Below are positions 6,001-12,000 of a stretch of 64,000 nucleotides of DNA, one piece after another. Position 1 is the stretch's first letter; each line of letters starts with the position of its first letter. The DNA lies in NCBI RefSeq assembly GCF_003018255.1, contig NZ_CP027440.1, one strand, 5' to 3'. This DNA comes from Escherichia coli. GTDB taxonomy: Bacteria; Pseudomonadota; Gammaproteobacteria; Enterobacterales; Enterobacteriaceae. The position numbers were made by a program.

Positions 6001-9000
6001 ATTGAGCTTATCGTTGACGATCAGGATTCGCTACATTGCGTAACCATTCGGCGGTAAATTTGCCATCAGATGCATTGGCGAGAATTTCCGAATAGTTGGT
6101 TTTCATCGTGTATTCGGTGCGAGGTAACGCTCCGTTTTTAACCCACTTATGAATTGCAACATTTGACAACCCGCATAAACGGGCAGCGACTGTTTGACCA
6201 CCAACAGCTTTTACTGCGAATTGTATCGGATTCATACTGCTATCCATTAATTTAGTTAACTTCGAGTTAATGTTAACTATTAGCTGACAGTTATGTCAAC
6301 TATGTTTGATAATTAACGTATGGTTAAAAAAGATGAACTAAAAGAAGCGTTCTCAAAGAGACTACTACAGGCATTATTAGATGCAGGTGTGGGCGGACGC
6401 GGTCAGGCTAAGCGGATTCAGAATGCAATGAAACTGCGAGGCATTGATATCTCTGAACCGGGGATCTGGAAATGGCTTAATTCTGCATCAATTCCAGAAA
6501 AAACAAGTATTTTGGCACTTAGTGACTGGCTTTCCGTGAAGCCGGAGTGGTTGGAGTATGGCAGTAACGAGCCATCCGTAAAACAGCGACCTTCTATTCC
6601 AAACGAATCAGAATGGGGTTCCCTTGAAACTTGGGACAGAAATACACCACTACGAGATGATGAAGTTGAGGTGCCATATCTGAAAGACATTGAGTTTGCA
6701 TGCGGTGACGGAAGAGTTCATTGCGAAGATCATAATGGTTTTAAATTACGCTTCTCAAAAGCAACCTTGCGCCGTGTCGGAGCTAACAGTGATGGTTCTG
6801 GTGTGCTTTGTTTTCCGGCTACTGGTGATAGCATGGAACCCGTGATACCAGATGGAACAACAATCGCAGTAGACACAAACAACAAACGTATTGTTGACGG
6901 CAAACTCTACGCCATCGCACAGCCTGGTGTCGGTGATGAAAAACTGAAGCGTATAAAGCTATTGTACAGACGCCCCGGTGGAAAACTAATCATACGCAGT
7001 TATAACAGTGAAGAGTACCCTGACGAAGAAGCAGATACTCAAAGCGTGGAGATTATCGGAAAAGTTTTCTGGTATTCAGTTCTGCTTTAGCCCTCTCCCC
7101 CGGCCTCAGAGCCGGGTTTTTTATTAACCCAGCTAGCCAAAACTCATCTATCCTAGCTTCTATACCCCTTCATACTTGATAACCGTCGCTCACCGAACAA
7201 GCAATAATAATTAACTAAAAATCAAAAACATAGAATGCCTCCACAATAATTTTAACTTTGAGTTATTGACTAACACTAACCAACGGTTAATAATCATTTT
7301 ACCAACAGGTCACCGATAACAACGCGGTCCCAATTGGAAAGCTCTTTAAACAACGTCGAACACTCGACTACGTGGCTGCAAAGCCAGATCGCCCAACCGC
7401 ATAAGCTGTCGGGTGCAATGCCGAAGCAATCATCTCAGGGGAGGCTTCGAGATTGCATCGCCAAAGTTTATTCGGGAGAAATCTATGTCCAGAAAAACAG
7501 AATTTAAAGGCACCGCAGCTTCCCGCCGCAGAGCACACCGGGCTGAGCTTCAGAGTCTGGAGGCATCAAGCGCTGATAAACTGCACCGCCCCACACCTTC
7601 ACGGGTGTACTTACAGTGCAAACGCAAAGCCGCAATGCGAGCTGAAGTAGTCACGATAACGACATTAACCAGAAAATATGAAGGCTCTACTTGTCTTCCA
7701 AACACTGCACTTTACGCAGCTGGCTATCGCAAATCCGGAACAATAACAGCGAGGTGATTGATGACCACGCCTTCAGTTTTGCCGCAAAAATTATGGCGTC
7801 CGCTTGCAGAGATTAAAAACTTCGTTGAAAAAATGCCTGACGGCGTTCGCCTTACGGAAGTTACTAAAAAAGTTAAGACATTTGCCGAACTGTCAGGAAA
7901 GGAGAGAAACCAGCTCATAGATTTTATCGATAAACGGGAAAGCATCATTGTATTTAAGGTCAGAAAAGAAGGTTCTGGTAACGGAGTAACCTTTTTCCGC
8001 CACAAAAAATATGGATATCCCAAGCGGGAAGGAAACGTCACAATCATTAAGGACCTTCAATCAAAATTATGTACCAGATGCGGGCAGACAAAATCAGTCG
8101 ATGATTTTTATTCAGATGCCAGCAAACGTGACGGGAGAGCCATTTATTGCAAGAAGTGCGAATCTGCGATGAAACGCTCACGCAGAGAATGCAACAAATT
8201 AATTCTGCAACAACAGGAACCTGAAATGAATAACCTAAAAGCAGTTTCACCTTCACCAGAAATACTCAGAAAGCAGGCGGAAGAATTGCTGAAAGCCGCC
8301 GAAATTGCGGAGAAAAAACGCCAGGAAGATGATGTATTCAACAAAAAACTTGCGCCCTTAAAACTTGAAATTCTTCAGGCCGCCGGAAAAATGCAGCTTA
8401 AACTGGACGAATTCATCGACTGTATGGATGAAATGAATAAAGCAGTTCAGAAGCTTAAAGAGCTGACCGCCTGATATTAATAAATTGCAACTACCGGAGT
8501 TAACTATGAACGAAACAGAACTGAAGCACATTATCGCCCTGCTTCTGGAAGATGCCAGACAGGTTTATCGACTTAGCCCAAACTCCGCAACGCAGGAACG
8601 CATCCGGATGGCAGAAAAAGCGCTGAAACAGGAGAGTGAAAATAACATATCCGAAGTTAGCGCGAATGGTGAAAATGAAGCAATAGAAATAAACAGCAAT
8701 ATCAGCGACGGCGTAATAGCTTCATCCCACAAGACAATTCTCATGGGCGCACGACTTCTGGAGGTGATTACGAGTGAGCTTGAAAAGAACGGTATCAAGC
8801 CCACCCCTTGTTATTTAGAGTGTGTGTTAAATGTTATTGCTTACTCGATGTTCCGTCGGTGACAGATGAAAGTTTTCGATCAAGGAATGTTTCAAGTGCA
8901 TCGTAAATAATGGAAATCGCCCCAGACGCCTGAGTGACAACCCCGCTGCAACATCCATGTATCAATATCCTCTTTGGCGGACATCGGTTTGCCGATTGCT

Positions 9001-12000
9001 GATGTCCGCCCTTTTTAAAAGTGAATTTTATGATGCGGTGAATGCGGCTATGCGCACGCGGAACAGTTAAACCGACAGGATGTCACGGAAAATCATCATC
9101 CCCTGCTCCGGCGTTAATTGTTAACTGGTTAACGTCACCTGGAGGCACCAGGCACCGCATCAACAAAGTTCATTTGTGAAAATGGAGATAATTATGATTG
9201 CTCATCACTTCGGAACTGATGAAATACCACGTCAGTGCGTGACACCTGGCGATTATGTTCTTCATGAAGGCCGCACATATATCGCTTCAGCAAACAATAT
9301 TGAAAAGAGAAAACTCTATATTCGTAGCCTGACTACAAAAACATGCATTACCGACTGCATGATTAAAGTTTTCATCGGGCGCGATGGCTTACCTGTAAAA
9401 GCAGAGTAGTTGTGACGAGTAATAAAATACACCTTCCATATCTGTAACAGACAAACCGAAATAAAAACCACATTAATTATCAATCACGGGAAAATCAAAA
9501 TGAAAGAACTTGCGCAAAATGAAATTTTTTCCGAAACCAGTCCTGATGCAATAAATGAACTCAAAGAAATTGCAGAACGCATCAGTAAAATATGCAAAAA
9601 ACACAAAATCGACTTTGTATTTTCTTTTTCAGTGCTTACAGAAGTTGGAAATAACGAATATAAAGACAGTCGCTTTGTTTCCTTCGGTTTATATTGCGAA
9701 ACCACCAGCCCATATATTCATGCTGCATCTGAAATTGTCGACAGTCATATTGATCCACAAAGAATTCAGGAACTGACCCTGGCACTTCAACTTCTCAGAG
9801 AAAATGGCGAATGCAACTGCTCTGACTGCCAGCATGAAAAGAAAAAAACAACTCACAAAACAACAAACCAGGCAACCTTACACTGAAATAAAAAATCCGG
9901 CAGCGCAGGCTACCGGACTCCCCCCTGCGTCACTGTATTCGGAGAAATCAGACAAAGGGCCGCTAATTCTAATCCAGCCAGAGGTTTAAATACAATGAGC
10001 GCTGATAAACAAACTTTTGCACTGCACTGCGAAGCAAAAAACGATAAAGTCAGAAAACGCCTTGGCATCAAAGGCGGTTTTTTCTGGGCTGATACCAGAA
10101 AACTTTCTGTCGCAGTTTCCCGCTGCATTGCAGCCATGGACGATGCAGGCTACGACGAGGATGATTTCAAAAAACCCGTTCGCGTAAATTTCCCCGTCGT
10201 GAATGACCTTCCACCGGAAGGCGTGTTTGATACTGAATTCTGCAACCGCTATGAAAAAGGCGGGGAAGATGGCATCACCATGATGGCAATCCCCTTCGAT
10301 GACAACATCAACGGTGAAGATGCCACAACAGCTGGCGATGACTACGATAACCTGGACGGAACTATTCCGGATGATGTGGAGAAAAGCGAATCCCCGGACA
10401 GCGACGATGACTGTTCTGAGTGTGAAATTCCCGTCGCCACTCTGAGCCTTACTCATCGCTTCCTTCACCTCTTCTTCTTCAGCAAAGATGAAGATGGAAA
10501 ATACCGGCATCACGCCACACCCGAACAACGAAATAACGTGATCCGTATGGAGATGGACACAGAAGACAGTTACCTTCAGAGCCTGCTTACTGCTGTGCGT
10601 TCACATCCAGAGCTGGATAAGCTGACGAATTATCATCTGGGAAGACTGGCACAATCCGTTGGAAAGGCATTCTCTCACGCAACACCCCGTCATATCAGCC
10701 CGGCCGAATTCGACAAGTTCATCTCCACCTGGATGAAAACAGACTATGTGGATCAGGGATTGCTGGCAAAAGAATGGCAGAAAGGAAATTATGTTACAGG
10801 CATCACTCGTACGCCTTCCGGTGCTAACGCTGGCGGCGGAAATCTTACCGATCGTGGCGAAGGCTTTACCCACAATCAGGCATCACTGGCGCGAGACATT
10901 GCCACTGGCGTTCTGGCCCGTTCAATGGATGTGGATATTTATAACCTGCACCCTGCACATGCAAAACGCGTTGAAGAAATCGTTGCAGAGAATAAACCGC
11001 CCTTTTCTGTTTTCCGTGACAAATTCATCGCCATGCCCGGTGGGCTGGATTATTCCCGCGCCATTGTGGTGGCTTCAGTGAAAGAAGCACCAATTGGCAT
11101 TGAGGCTATCCCGGCGCGCGTGACTGAATATCTCAACAAAGTGTTGACCGAAACCGATCACTCTAACCCGGATCCGGAAATCGTGGAAATTGCCTGCGGT
11201 CGCTCATCAGCCCCGATGCCGCAGCGCGGAACAGCAGAAGAGATACATGACGATGAAGAAAAGCAGCAAACATCGGACGCAATGTCTAATGAACAGGCAG
11301 CGCCTGAATCAGTGGAAGAAATTCCAGTTAAACATAATGCGGACACGCAATCACTGGAAAATGTCTCATCTGTAGAAACGAAATACCAGGAACTGAGAGC
11401 AGAACTCTATGAAGCCAGGAAAAACATTTTGCCCAAAAATCCTGTCGATGCAGACAAATTGCTGGCTGCCTCTCGTGGGGAGTTCGTTGAAGGCATCAGC
11501 GACCCAACCGACCCGAAGTGGGTGAAGGGGATCCAGACTCGCGACACTGAGGACCAGAATCAATCCAAAGTGGAACAAAACAGCCCGGATACGCAACAAA
11601 ACGGACCAGAAGAGCAACAGCCTGGGCCAGTAATGCAACAGGAAGTGGAAAAGGTTTGCACCGCATGCGGTCAGAACAGTGGCGGGCATTGCCCTGACTG
11701 TGGTCCAGTAATGGGAGATGAAACTTACGCTGAAACTTTTGGAGAAAATGAGACCGCTGCTGGAGATGACCAGGCACAAATGAAGAATGAATACATTCAG
11801 AAAAATGCTGTTGATACAACTCAGGAACACGATTCGGTTGTTCACATCGATCCAGATAGTGATGCTTCTGACAATAATGATGATTCAGAGCAAGCAGATT
11901 TCGACTGGAAAAGGCAACTCGTGCTTGCAGCCGTCTATGGTTTGTGCGCAAACCCTGCATGCGTCGCAACAGCGCCAGCAATCCCTGATATCGCAATCAT

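Follow-up and report, generated by a model that had tools for sequence, protein, structure and literature searches.

A predicted terminator hairpin at the DicF position and an STnc100-like leader precede kilR in the pL operon of a lambdoid Stx1-converting phage

Introduction

The pL (early-left) region of phage lambda is arranged N-tL1-ral-sieB-ea10-cIII-kil-gam-bet-exo. Internal terminators are read through in an N-dependent manner, the recombination genes lie distally, and the intervening slot is used by lambdoid phages for anti-defence, host-takeover and superinfection-exclusion genes such as lambda ral, sieB and gam.

Related arrangements are found in E. coli prophages. In the Qin-type dicF-dicB locus a conserved upstream sequence leads into a U-run-flanked GGCGG...CCGCC hairpin, after which come a conserved leader of 160-190 nt and a division-inhibitor gene. 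In the cryptic prophage Rac, kilR also follows a hairpin and leader; Rac KilR inhibits FtsZ and MreB, prevents FtsZ rings from forming, blocks division with resulting filamentation and is silenced via Rho/NusG (PMC12482147, PMC5793797). Described copies of the structured RNAs STnc100, EcOnc27 and PasD occupy the late region, where they follow stx2B or lie close to Q and the lysis genes (PMC12711010; bioRxiv 10.64898/2026.05.13.724894).

Here we analyse the early-left operon within a 64,000-nucleotide stretch of E. coli contig NZ_CP027440.1 (the window), where a preliminary description had noted four poorly characterised genes and an internal terminator between N and the recombination module.

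Results

The segment is ~99% identical to two Stx1 phages, POCJ13 and 75/02 Stx, and its genes are arranged as in both. cI (6320-7090) and its terminator (7099-7116) are followed, ahead of N, by a pL-like sigma-70 promoter (7266..7294; TTGACT-17-AATAAT, 10 of 12 matches). Further on, a boxA-like AGCTCTTTAAACAA and then a hairpin, GUCGA-ACAC-UCGAC, present in both the MFE and centroid folds, were read from the sequence at 7340..7368, which we infer to be a candidate nutL site. The N antiterminator gene (7485..7757) matched Pfam PF25694 N_peptide at 91.3 bits (cut-off 27.9) and is so annotated in POCJ13. From the promoter to the 128-aa gene, all features described here lie on the plus strand. 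Downstream of the four ORFs are a RecE-like ORF and then gam-bet-exo. The block N-237-118-[non-coding]-KilR-128-RecE-like-Gam-RecT-YqaJ is repeated in E. coli prophages with differing immunity regions, and a breakpoint is seen at the boundary of N and the 237-aa gene. The earlier placement of these genes is borne out: they form the accessory section nearest the promoter in a lambdoid pL operon, flanked by N and the recombination genes. The identity and gene order shared with POCJ13 and 75/02 Stx support assignment of the operon to an Stx1-converting phage. The slot, the division inhibitor and the distal recombination genes correspond to those of lambda, and the region is ordinary in kind.

The hairpin, the two Cys motifs and each of the four ORFs were recovered where they had been described. 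Each ORF has full-length homologues, a PHROG family and synteny conserved across many E. coli prophages, and pairwise dN/dS against syntenic relatives was below 1 throughout (0.04-0.13 for the 237-aa protein, 0.30-0.43 for the 118-aa protein, 0.08-0.13 for KilR and 0.17-0.45 for the 128-aa protein); these are real genes, beyond chance. The 237-, 118- and 128-aa proteins belong to PHROGs 2539, 2982 and 2016, respectively, all of 'unknown function', and are 'hypothetical' in phage records. None of the three has a Pfam or NCBIfam family above cut-off, a PDB relative that we could find, or a match to lambda or P22 pL protein families in Pfam and PHROGs, and no mention of these families was found in the literature. 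The label 'poorly characterised' thus holds for three of the genes, and the four do not all correspond to well-characterised housekeeping proteins; it does not hold for the KilR-like gene.

The latter, kilR (9194..9409; 71 aa), lies in an ORF open from 9176 with GGAG at 9184-9187. Alignment to the NCBIfam model starts only at residue 7 of this 77-aa ORF, which makes ATG 9194 the most likely start. The product matched NF008465 at 153.3 bits (cut-off 92; model positions 1-71 of 73) and phrog_294 Kil, its syntenic orthologues carry Pfam KilR PF27398, and 66 of its 71 residues (93%) are identical, without gaps, to K-12-type Rac KilR. Judged by sequence, it is a member of the known FtsZ/MreB inhibitor family, which is separate from the family of lambda Kil. 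Rac kilR shares the upstream hairpin and leader and the NCBIfam and PHROG families. However, the window kilR belongs to an Stx1 phage that appears intact, and is placed under pL and N, the 128-aa orphan takes the place of ydaE (which follows kilR in Rac), no antisense sieB lies upstream, and the protein has 71 rather than 73 residues.

The 237-aa protein ('gpA', 7761..8474), whose ATG lies 3 nt past the N stop codon, comprises a basic winged-helix domain (residues 1-92), a Zn ribbon (C104-x2-C107 ... C130-x2-C133), a helix (131-150) and an invariant long C-terminal helix (166-236). The N-domain shows the H-H-H-beta-beta (wing) fold of a winged helix, has a charge of +8.6 and a pI of 10.05, and its basic wing hardly varies within the family. 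All invariant residues of the family fall within the C-terminal helix; the Zn ribbon is optional, being missing from the ~198-aa members that make up about half of the family. Winged-helix regulators that have a C-terminal dimerisation helix (PadR/LmrR, Bacillus RTP, MarR/ArsR) show no sequence similarity to this protein. The 237-aa protein inserts the Zn ribbon between wing and helix, and its highest conservation lies in the acidic C-terminal helix rather than the recognition helix. Most likely the protein binds nucleic acid as a dimer and uses its invariant C-terminal helix to contact a partner; DNA binding is putative, since winged helices also occur in RNA- and protein-binding domains (SelB, cullin, RPA32).

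The gene for the 118-aa acidic helical protein ('gpB', 8506..8862) has a GGAG Shine-Dalgarno 7 nt upstream. Its product has a constant N-terminal module of ~45 aa and a variable C-terminus: PHROGs other than its own match residues 1-42 only, and at one locus (L014) the same type of N-terminus is joined to an unrelated 175-aa C-terminus. The organism-named ones among its 15 homologues are all from E. coli or Shigella. The 128-aa orphan protein ('gpD', 9500..9886) carries C105-N-C107-S-D-C110 and a Lys/Thr-rich tail, and its gene has a GC content of 37.5% against 49.9% for the window, in agreement with the AT-rich gene and CNCSDC motif noted before. All organism-named members of its 26 homologues are E. 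coli, its AF2 model is poor (pLDDT 59), and when 1.84 billion representatives were searched with its profile, no relatives outside the family itself were returned. Both are, on the divergence and distribution of their sequences, fast-evolving families with named homologues in E. coli or Shigella only.

Window positions 8922-9174 are matched by many E. coli genomes (megablast). A conserved non-coding stretch (8922..8975), which contains the 5' tail AUAUCCUCUUU and has a counterpart immediately ahead of dicF in a Qin-like prophage, leads into a hairpin (8976..9016) that by fold and alignment is a predicted intrinsic terminator and a degenerate DicF-like element. Its 13-bp stem (8976-8988/8998-9010) encloses a 9-nt loop, and a U5 run (9012-9016) directly follows the G+C-rich stem, as in Rho-independent terminators. 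The hairpin has a dG of -24.6 kcal/mol (z = -4.4), none of 200 shuffles folded as well, and a compensatory CG->UA change was seen in the otherwise invariant stem base GGCGG/CCGCC. A simple terminator scan had missed it because the scan limited loops to 8 nt. In alignments the element occupies the DicF position, as a terminator hairpin in a prophage early operon, upstream of a division-inhibitor leader. Against the DicF model (Rfam RF00039, gathering score 48 bits) it scored 15.8 bits (E 0.52) when 301 nt were searched and gave no match at E <= 1 when the search was widened to 3.1 kb, while syntenic relatives reached 43.3 bits and the Qin-like locus 72.5 bits. The order of elements is that of Qin-type dicF-dicB, but the 5' seed is shortened, the loop is replaced, no DicF-like ftsZ pairing is predicted, and the downstream kilR is sequence-unrelated to dicB. 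Co-folding with the ftsZ ribosome-binding site gave a ddG of -5.2 kcal/mol, which ranks at 12.7% when set against 118 control start regions, whereas the DicF positive control gave -11.8 kcal/mol on the ftsZ start region (top 3.4% of 118 controls). The internal terminator of the preliminary description is present, but it is more than that: it is the DicF-position part of a hairpin-plus-leader unit that belongs with kilR.

Directly after the hairpin, ~160 nt (9017..9175) form an STnc100-like structured RNA leader with helices P1 (9019-9040/9153-9175), P2 (9044-9048/9054-9059), P3 (9110-9119/9127-9136) and P4 (9138-9142/9148-9152), and with a hypervariable segment (9060-9109) that forms differing hairpins among variants. 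The MFE is -57.3 kcal/mol (z -2.8). For 30 leader variants RNAalifold predicted 41 pairs with 99.5% of cells paired, compared to 33-47% in slid-partner controls. Double compensatory changes occurred in 5 of the 41 pairs against 0.8 expected (0/500 shuffles); P1 had no broken cell, and every one-sided change in it (19/19) kept a G-U or standard pair. Of the 41 pairs, 22 never vary, and since only five are doubly changed, some of the near-invariance may stem from recent recombination instead of RNA function. The covariation supports the predicted long-range closing helix P1.

Under the STnc100 model (Rfam RF02076, gathering score 47 bits) the leader scored below threshold at 32.2 bits, with E values of 1.5e-5 (301 nt), 1.6e-4 (3.1 kb) and 0.0032 (whole window). 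All model positions (1-206/206) were aligned, including the closing helix, GGUGAAU and the CCNGG-AGGCA-CCNGG hairpin, and P1, P3 and P4 are backed by the independent RNAalifold run and pair counts. The closing helix, GGUGAAU and UCACCUGGAGGCACCAGGCACC motifs are common to the window leader and the STnc100/PasD family; in contrast to the late-region copies, the element studied here lies in the early-left operon as the leader of kilR or dicB. The hairpin-plus-leader unit is present in ~85% of complete E. coli genomes. In viral contigs the gene after the leader encodes DicB at 52 loci, KilR at 18 and TerB at 9, among others, and the unit also stands ahead of Rha and other genes.

Discussion

Taken together, these results favour, with moderate confidence, a model in which a pL/N-driven accessory block carries a terminator at the DicF position and an STnc100-type leader ahead of kilR. 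Transcription would begin at pL, and N acting at the nutL-like site would make RNA polymerase terminator-resistant; such read-through is plausible given the N gene together with the boxA-like sequence and hairpin at 7340-7368. The first two products would be the basic winged-helix/Zn-ribbon/long-helix protein and the modular acidic protein. The hairpin at 8976-9016 would halt unmodified polymerase, and thus kilR and the distal genes (the 128-aa orphan, the RecE-like ORF, gam, bet and exo) would be made only after N. In read-through RNA the next 160 nt would fold as the STnc100-type leader, placing the ~20-bp P1 helix at the RNase III cut position of the dicF-dicB transcript. As relayed in PMC5069750, which cites Faubladier 1990 on this point, the 72-nt DicF has an RNase III-made 3' end 19 nt past the 53-nt form; by alignment, the end so described lies within the upstream arm of P1. 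RNase III cleavage at P1 could then split the upstream RNA from the kilR mRNA, leaving the Shine-Dalgarno free, and KilR would block FtsZ and MreB in lytic growth.

Whether the hairpin itself yields a functional RNA bears on this model. A DicF-type sRNA from 8962-9016 that represses ftsZ translation, doubling the effect of KilR, would fit the position, the flanks, the GGCGG...CCGCC-U5 hairpin, the scores of syntenic relatives and the CCUCUU in the 5' tail, which resembles an anti-Shine-Dalgarno; moreover, DicF is released from such an operon by termination and processing (PMC5069750). We nevertheless regard it as quite unlikely: the DicF model barely recognises the window hairpin (15.8 bits, E 0.52), the ftsZ-pairing loop (AGUUUUACUCCG) is substituted, the contact of -5.2 kcal/mol amounts to generic anti-Shine-Dalgarno pairing, and the stem is more stable than that of DicF (-23.9 vs -16.6 kcal/mol), masking the loop. 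A deflationary reading, in which some ORFs arose by chance and the conserved non-coding sequence serves as a mere recombination linker devoid of RNA function, is very unlikely. Lambdoid mosaic junctions do often fall at conserved sequence, a breakpoint is visible where N meets the 237-aa gene, and most pairs of the nearly invariant leader carry no information. Yet every ORF combines dN/dS below 1 with full-length homologues and conserved synteny, and the leader combines covarying pairs well above expectation, pair-keeping changes in P1 and low pairing in controls with a hypervariable middle that still folds, into different hairpins across variants.

The preliminary description also pointed to this slot as one for host-takeover, exclusion and anti-defence genes; we found no evidence for exclusion or anti-defence. 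That one or more of the three uncharacterised proteins is an arms-race anti-defence, host-takeover or superinfection-exclusion factor is rather unlikely. In its favour, the 118- and 128-aa proteins are rapidly evolving (dN 0.14-0.19, dN/dS up to 0.45), both are acidic and have their named homologues confined to E. coli or Shigella; the 118-aa slot keeps 45 N-terminal residues fixed while C-termini are swapped, and the AT-richness of the 128-aa gene is as expected of recent acquisition. The Zn ribbon of the 237-aa protein matches phrog_5558, 'Lar-like restriction alleviation' (E 1e-9), but this partial alignment (residues 99-162 to profile positions 6-68 of 130) is limited to a ribbon lacking in half of the family, and Pfam, scanned at E <= 0.1, gave no match to its Lar family. 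Searching PADLOC-DB v2 with the three proteins, KilR and the RecE-like protein gave a sole, sub-significant match, of the 118-aa protein to a 2TM effector (E 0.0082, 13.8 bits), and the lack of Pfam, NCBIfam, PDB and literature counterparts likewise counts against such a role. Unlike typical arms-race genes, the gene for the 237-aa protein shows strong purifying selection (dN/dS down to 0.04), and the protein, being conserved, basic and winged-helix-like, fits a nucleic-acid binder better than a typical anti-defence decoy. A role for it as an HNH or endonuclease VII-type nuclease is scarcely credible. PHROG families labelled endonuclease VII, HNH or endonuclease match residues 96-188 (E 2e-10 to 3e-6), and actinophage HNH endonucleases match residues 81-156 (tblastn), but the nuclease-labelled matches span only the Zn ribbon and the helix after it, the ribbon is dispensable as noted, and no Pfam nuclease domain was found in the protein. 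The beta-beta-alpha-metal motif is absent, and an HNH catalytic motif is impossible because residues 93-150 contain no histidine.

Beyond the nucleic-acid-binding reading of the 237-aa protein and the N-dependent model for kilR, a broader interpretation may be put forward, although we consider it unlikely: the DicF-type hairpin and STnc100-type leader would form a portable 'gate' cassette, put by lambdoid prophages before potentially toxic host-directed genes, and the 237-aa protein, with its invariant C-terminal helix, would represent a new class of early phage factor, tethering a host protein to nucleic acid. Were the gate real, KilR, DicB, TerB, Rha and small membrane proteins would all be coupled to antitermination and RNase III processing, and DicF, STnc100 and PasD would be sRNA off-shoots of one ancestral leader.

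Genomic placement of the four ORFs

Two Stx1-converting Shigella phages, 75/02 Stx and POCJ13, match window positions 7400-10000 from end to end at 99.0-99.1% identity, and two more E. coli phages match at 91-93%; 7761-9886 is present at 100% identity in one E. coli chromosome. The annotated gene order of POCJ13 is a CI-like repressor, an N-like antiterminator, two hypothetical proteins, Kil, a further hypothetical protein, "exonuclease VII/VIII", Gam, a RecT-like protein and an exonuclease. Because of this phage identity and gene order, the four plus-strand ORFs at 7761-9886 can be placed, from sequence, within the pL (early-left) operon of a lambdoid Stx phage, and the POCJ13 order bears out the early-left slot proposed in the preliminary description. 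The papers on POCJ13 contain no discussion of these early-left genes.

E. coli prophages whose repressors differ, and whose inserts between cI and N differ too (a protein-kinase gene is one example), repeatedly show the arrangement N, 237 aa, 118-119 aa, non-coding gap, KilR, 128-130 aa, RecE-like, Gam, RecT, YqaJ. Among related loci outside the window, the cI-N interval holds a 180-aa protein and a DUF1828 protein (L011, 937-2243), or a DUF3024 protein, a 153-aa protein and a Ser/Thr protein kinase (L013 and L015-L018, about 1293-3203); the interval in the window (7117-7265) contains no insert gene. The inserts of the relatives look like prophage-expressed morons or defence candidates.

In three of five relatives N (7485-7757) is only 55% identical (dS about 2.1), whereas the adjoining 237-aa protein is 98% identical (dS 0.2). 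The difference therefore points to a mosaic breakpoint exactly at the boundary between the two genes (7755-7763). The ATG of the 237-aa gene lies just 3 nt past the N stop codon, a spacing that suggests translational coupling. A candidate nutL (7340-7368), located ~50 nt downstream of the pL-like promoter (7266-7294), comprises a boxA-like AGCTCTTTAAACAA, close to the rrn boxA, followed by a GUCGA-ACAC-UCGAC hairpin.

Directly upstream of the lambda-type gam-bet-exo genes, a 682-aa ORF (9995-12043, plus strand) labelled "exodeoxyribonuclease VIII" covers only positions 1-593 of 877 in the RecE equivalog model, scoring 744.7 bits where the cut-off is 1269, and 1-618 of 883 in phrog_607. Because its coverage of these models is partial, the ORF is the N-terminal two-thirds of RecE, lacking the C-terminal nuclease domain.

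Coding evidence and the identity of KilR

ORF calls and reading of the sequence recovered every element named in the preliminary description at its position. A GGAG Shine-Dalgarno sequence precedes the 118-aa ORF (8506-8862) by 7 nt. The kilR frame is open from 9176, and since the NCBIfam model begins at residue 7, the start probably lies at ATG 9194 (9194-9409, 71 aa), which is preceded by GGAG at 9184-9187. The AT-richness described for the 128-aa ORF (9500-9886) amounts to 37.5% GC against 49.9% for the window, and the encoded protein carries the CNCSDC motif as C105-N-C107-S-D-C110; the Zn ribbon of the 237-aa protein is likewise present (C104-x2-C107 ... C130-x2-C133). Pairwise Nei-Gojobori comparison of the window with five syntenic relatives gave dN/dS values of 0.04-0.13 for the 237-aa gene (7761-8474) and 0.08-0.13 for kilR, while the 118-aa gene stood at 0.30-0.43 and the 128-aa gene at 0.17-0.45; the comparison genes gam (0.14-0.31) and bet (0.02-0.10) are said to bracket these values. 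All four ORFs thus read as real genes.

The four genes had been described as poorly characterised. This holds for the 237-, 118- and 128-aa proteins, to which no function could be assigned, but not for KilR, a known effector. On NF008465, whose cut-off is 92, the window KilR scores 153.3 bits, and it shares 93% identity with K-12-type Rac KilR, an inhibitor of FtsZ-dependent division and MreB-dependent elongation (PMC12482147). Because of this score, this identity and the work on the Rac protein, window kilR is a close copy of a characterised effector gene. Rac kilR is kept silent by Rho/NusG and is de-repressed in oxidative stress via OxyS (PMC5793797), and kilR variants have recently been associated with clinical outcome in O157:H7 (PMC12711010).

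A winged-helix family and two narrowly distributed proteins

No Pfam or NCBIfam family matched the 237-aa protein above cut-off; it falls in phrog_2539, of unknown function. Its 67 homologues across Enterobacterales, all annotated "hypothetical", come from Kluyvera, Enterobacter, Klebsiella, Edwardsiella, Pectobacterium, Providencia, Serratia and Salmonella, and in an Intestinirhabdus prophage the family gene directly follows an N-sized ORF. The family alignment resolves three parts: a conserved N-terminal domain (residues 1-90), a middle part with the Zn ribbon, and a C-terminal helix. The ribbon segment is missing from members of ~198 aa, and the C-terminal helix holds 13 of the 15 invariant residues (P166, E167, R170, A173, E174, L176, A180, E184, L202, E203, Q206, D216 and D220). 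The most distant members, encoded at L008-L010 outside the window (gene 6001-6519 or 4266-4784), have 172 aa and no Zn ribbon; they are encoded outside the pL operon, in the nin region, with a KilA-N protein on one side and DUF968/antiterminator Q on the other. In two other members a further AlpA/HTH_17 domain is fused to the N-terminus.

With the family alignment as input, AlphaFold2 (pLDDT 83) predicted a winged helix (helices 9-23, 31-37 and 46-58; strands 62-69 and 75-81), followed by short ribbon strands, a helix at 131-150 and a single 70-residue helix at 166-236. Foldseek matches in the PDB were winged-helix proteins only (RTP, BlaI, PadR/LmrR and Fur; E 0.04-0.5, probability up to 0.99), and those among viral structures were only uncharacterised winged-helix or Zn-ribbon proteins. 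The winged-helix domain has a net charge of +8.6 and a pI of 10.05; the C-terminal helix is mildly acidic with a heptad-like hydrophobic stripe. A nuclease was considered, given PHROG matches to endonuclease VII and HNH proteins, but these are limited to the ribbon and the reading was excluded because residues 93-150 contain no histidine. A "Lar-like" PHROG match also covers the ribbon only. With moderate to low confidence, we infer that the 237-aa protein is a dimeric, nucleic-acid-binding early protein; at the same level of confidence, its invariant helix would be a functional surface toward a partner.

The 118-aa and 128-aa families comprise 15 and 26 cluster representatives, respectively, and every organism-named one is from E. 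coli or Shigella. The N-terminal 45 residues of the 118-aa protein are nearly invariant, residues 1-42 being the sole part common to other PHROGs, and the C-terminus is variable and often truncated. For the 128-aa protein, a profile HMM search of 1.84 billion representative proteins returned nothing beyond the family itself, and the AlphaFold (AF2) models disagreed with one another (pLDDT 59) and are unreliable; its C-x-C-x2-C motif is mostly conserved, not invariant. PDB sequence and profile searches with the 237-, 118- and 128-aa proteins gave nothing credible, the 128-aa profile match Ika8 being judged noise (E 0.006, no stretch passing), and PADLOC reported nothing significant for the proteins scanned. 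The PHROG numbers of these proteins and PF27269 are mentioned in no paper found. Because the families are narrow, the 118-aa C-terminus is variable and both proteins are acidic, the pair fits accessory, possibly arms-race, genes; there is no evidence for a particular target.

At the related locus L014 (3418-4080), the ~45-residue N-terminus of the 118-aa slot is joined to an unrelated 175-aa C-terminus ending in LLALLREQGEC, like LALQLLRENGEC of the 128-aa protein (window 9764-9814). Homology between the two through LLRExGEC was rejected: the likeness spans 17 residues only (BLASTP E 0.002, hhalign probability 3%).

A terminator hairpin at the DicF position

The 330-nt gap from the 118-aa gene to kilR is non-coding. 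The hairpin in it, previously described as an internal terminator, was placed here at 8976-9016: a 13-bp stem (8976-8988 paired with 8998-9010) encloses a loop of 9 nt and is followed by five U (9012-9016). Its folding energy is -24.6 kcal/mol (z = -4.4; 0 of 200 shuffles fold as well). A generic terminator scan missed it solely on account of a loop limit of 8 nt. On the minus strand between the 118-aa gene and the hairpin (8827-8965) are two overlapping 43-aa ORFs; the same place holds gene calls of 50-69 aa in relatives and antisense sieB in Rac.

A megablast search of complete E. coli genomes (n=5,426) with 7761-9886 matched 4,609 (about 85%), although most of the query was found in only 60. 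Among the rows sampled from the remainder, matches covered only 8922-9174, or that segment plus kilR, with no annotated feature beneath. In a Qin-like prophage the matching piece is directly upstream of dicB, where an Rfam DicF match (72.5 bits) is followed at once by a sub-threshold STnc100 match running into dicB. In Rac the corresponding position upstream of kilR is taken by a DicF-like sequence of 39.1 bits, and the DicF model gives 43.3 bits for close relatives that are syntenic with the window.

DicF-like prophage sequences have been known since the 1990s, those in Rac probably having been first described by Faubladier and Bouche in 1994 (as cited in PMC5069750). The window hairpin belongs to this group, as the DicF-position terminator of this locus type, but scores only 15.8 bits: compared with DicF, it keeps its U-run, both flanks and the base of the GGCGG...CCGCC stem, whereas it lacks six nucleotides of the 5′ seed and has a different loop. 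Plain duplex folding of the element with ftsZ (RNAduplex) gave unrealistically long duplexes, no better than shuffles, and pairing was scored instead by co-fold ddG against 118 control start regions. As a positive control, the known pairing of DicF with ftsZ was recovered at -11.8 kcal/mol (top 3.4%); the window element reached -5.2 kcal/mol (12.7%), via a generic CCUCUU contact. A DicF-like function of the window hairpin is not supported.

A structured leader of STnc100 type

From the U-run to the kilR Shine-Dalgarno sequence runs a leader of 160 nt (9017-9175), in which two almost invariant blocks flank a hypervariable segment. A 21-nt pattern from the first block gathered 120 viral-contig loci (IMG/VR, L020-L139), and 30 distinct variants were aligned. 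Four elements were predicted by RNAalifold. P1, which closes the structure over a long range, has 15 consensus pairs and, in the window, 21 bp joining 9019-9040 to 9153-9175; P2 is a small hairpin, P3 spans 11 bp, and P4 is the CCUGG/CCAGG hairpin. Across the 30 variants, 99.5% of 1,230 cells are paired; when partners were slid by 1-3 columns, pairing fell to 33-47%. Both sides changed at five pairs, compared with 0.8 in column shuffles (0 of 500 reached 5). Within P1 no cell is unpaired, and each of its 19 one-sided changes leaves a G-U or standard pair. The leader sequence is so conserved that covariation is modest, but it is consistent.

The closing helix and the GGUGAAU and UCACC-GGAGGCACC-GGCACC motifs of the leader are also those of the Rfam STnc100 model. 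On the strength of this shared helix and these motifs in the Rfam alignment, the leader is a divergent STnc100 relative, scoring below the curated threshold (32.2 bits against 47); no second STnc100-like copy occurs elsewhere in the window. A common origin was recently proposed for STnc100 and PasD, but published descriptions place both in late regions of prophages of the Stx type (bioRxiv 10.64898/2026.05.13.724894; PMC12711010). A 45-aa ORF inside the leader (9042-9179), which matches phrog_24763, was rejected as coding because its mid-part falls within the hypervariable segment, whose indel lengths are not divisible by three.

At the viral-contig loci the first gene past the leader encodes DicB in 52 cases and KilR in 18; in nine the product is a TerB-domain protein and in five a 78-aa membrane protein, with Rha-family and Zn-ribbon proteins among the rest. 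Because this gene differs among loci, hairpin and leader behave as a portable unit before varied host-directed genes. At 22 viral-contig loci the block-1 motif occurs in another context, without a DicF-type hairpin.

A passage of PMC5069750, citing Faubladier et al. 1990, describes a 53-nt form of DicF that arises by termination and a 72-nt form produced by RNase III cleavage of the full-length transcript. In the leader alignment, the extra 19 nt of the longer form end inside the 5′ strand of P1. A helix of ~20 bp is an expected RNase III substrate. We propose a model in which unmodified polymerase would stop at 9012-9016, while N-modified polymerase would read through the hairpin; the leader, whose structure is computed, would fold in the read-through RNA. 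RNase III might then cut P1, a step proposed because the DicF 72-nt end falls within this ~20-bp helix, releasing kilR mRNA with a free Shine-Dalgarno sequence, and KilR would arrest division and elongation during lytic growth.

Significance

The region is a lambdoid pL accessory block of known kind, and kilR is a known gene. New relative to the records and papers found are the dicF-dicB/kilR leader as a covariation-supported structured RNA of STnc100 type, its travelling with the hairpin before diverse genes, and the domain composition found for the 237-aa family. Stx phages are a driving force in the evolution of pathogenic E. coli and Shigella, and their early-left accessory genes decide the fate of the host during the opening minutes after induction. 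Here one known effector, KilR, is separated from three real unknowns, and a strongly conserved winged-helix protein and two fast-evolving families, so far E. coli-only, become candidates for knock-out and expression tests. The hairpin and leader before kilR form a structured RNA unit, unannotated in RefSeq records, that ties the separately described prophage RNAs DicF, STnc100 and PasD to one locus type. If this unit controls the expression of KilR and DicB, it would be relevant to stress-induced division arrest and to the kilR variants linked to clinical outcome in O157:H7 (PMC12711010).
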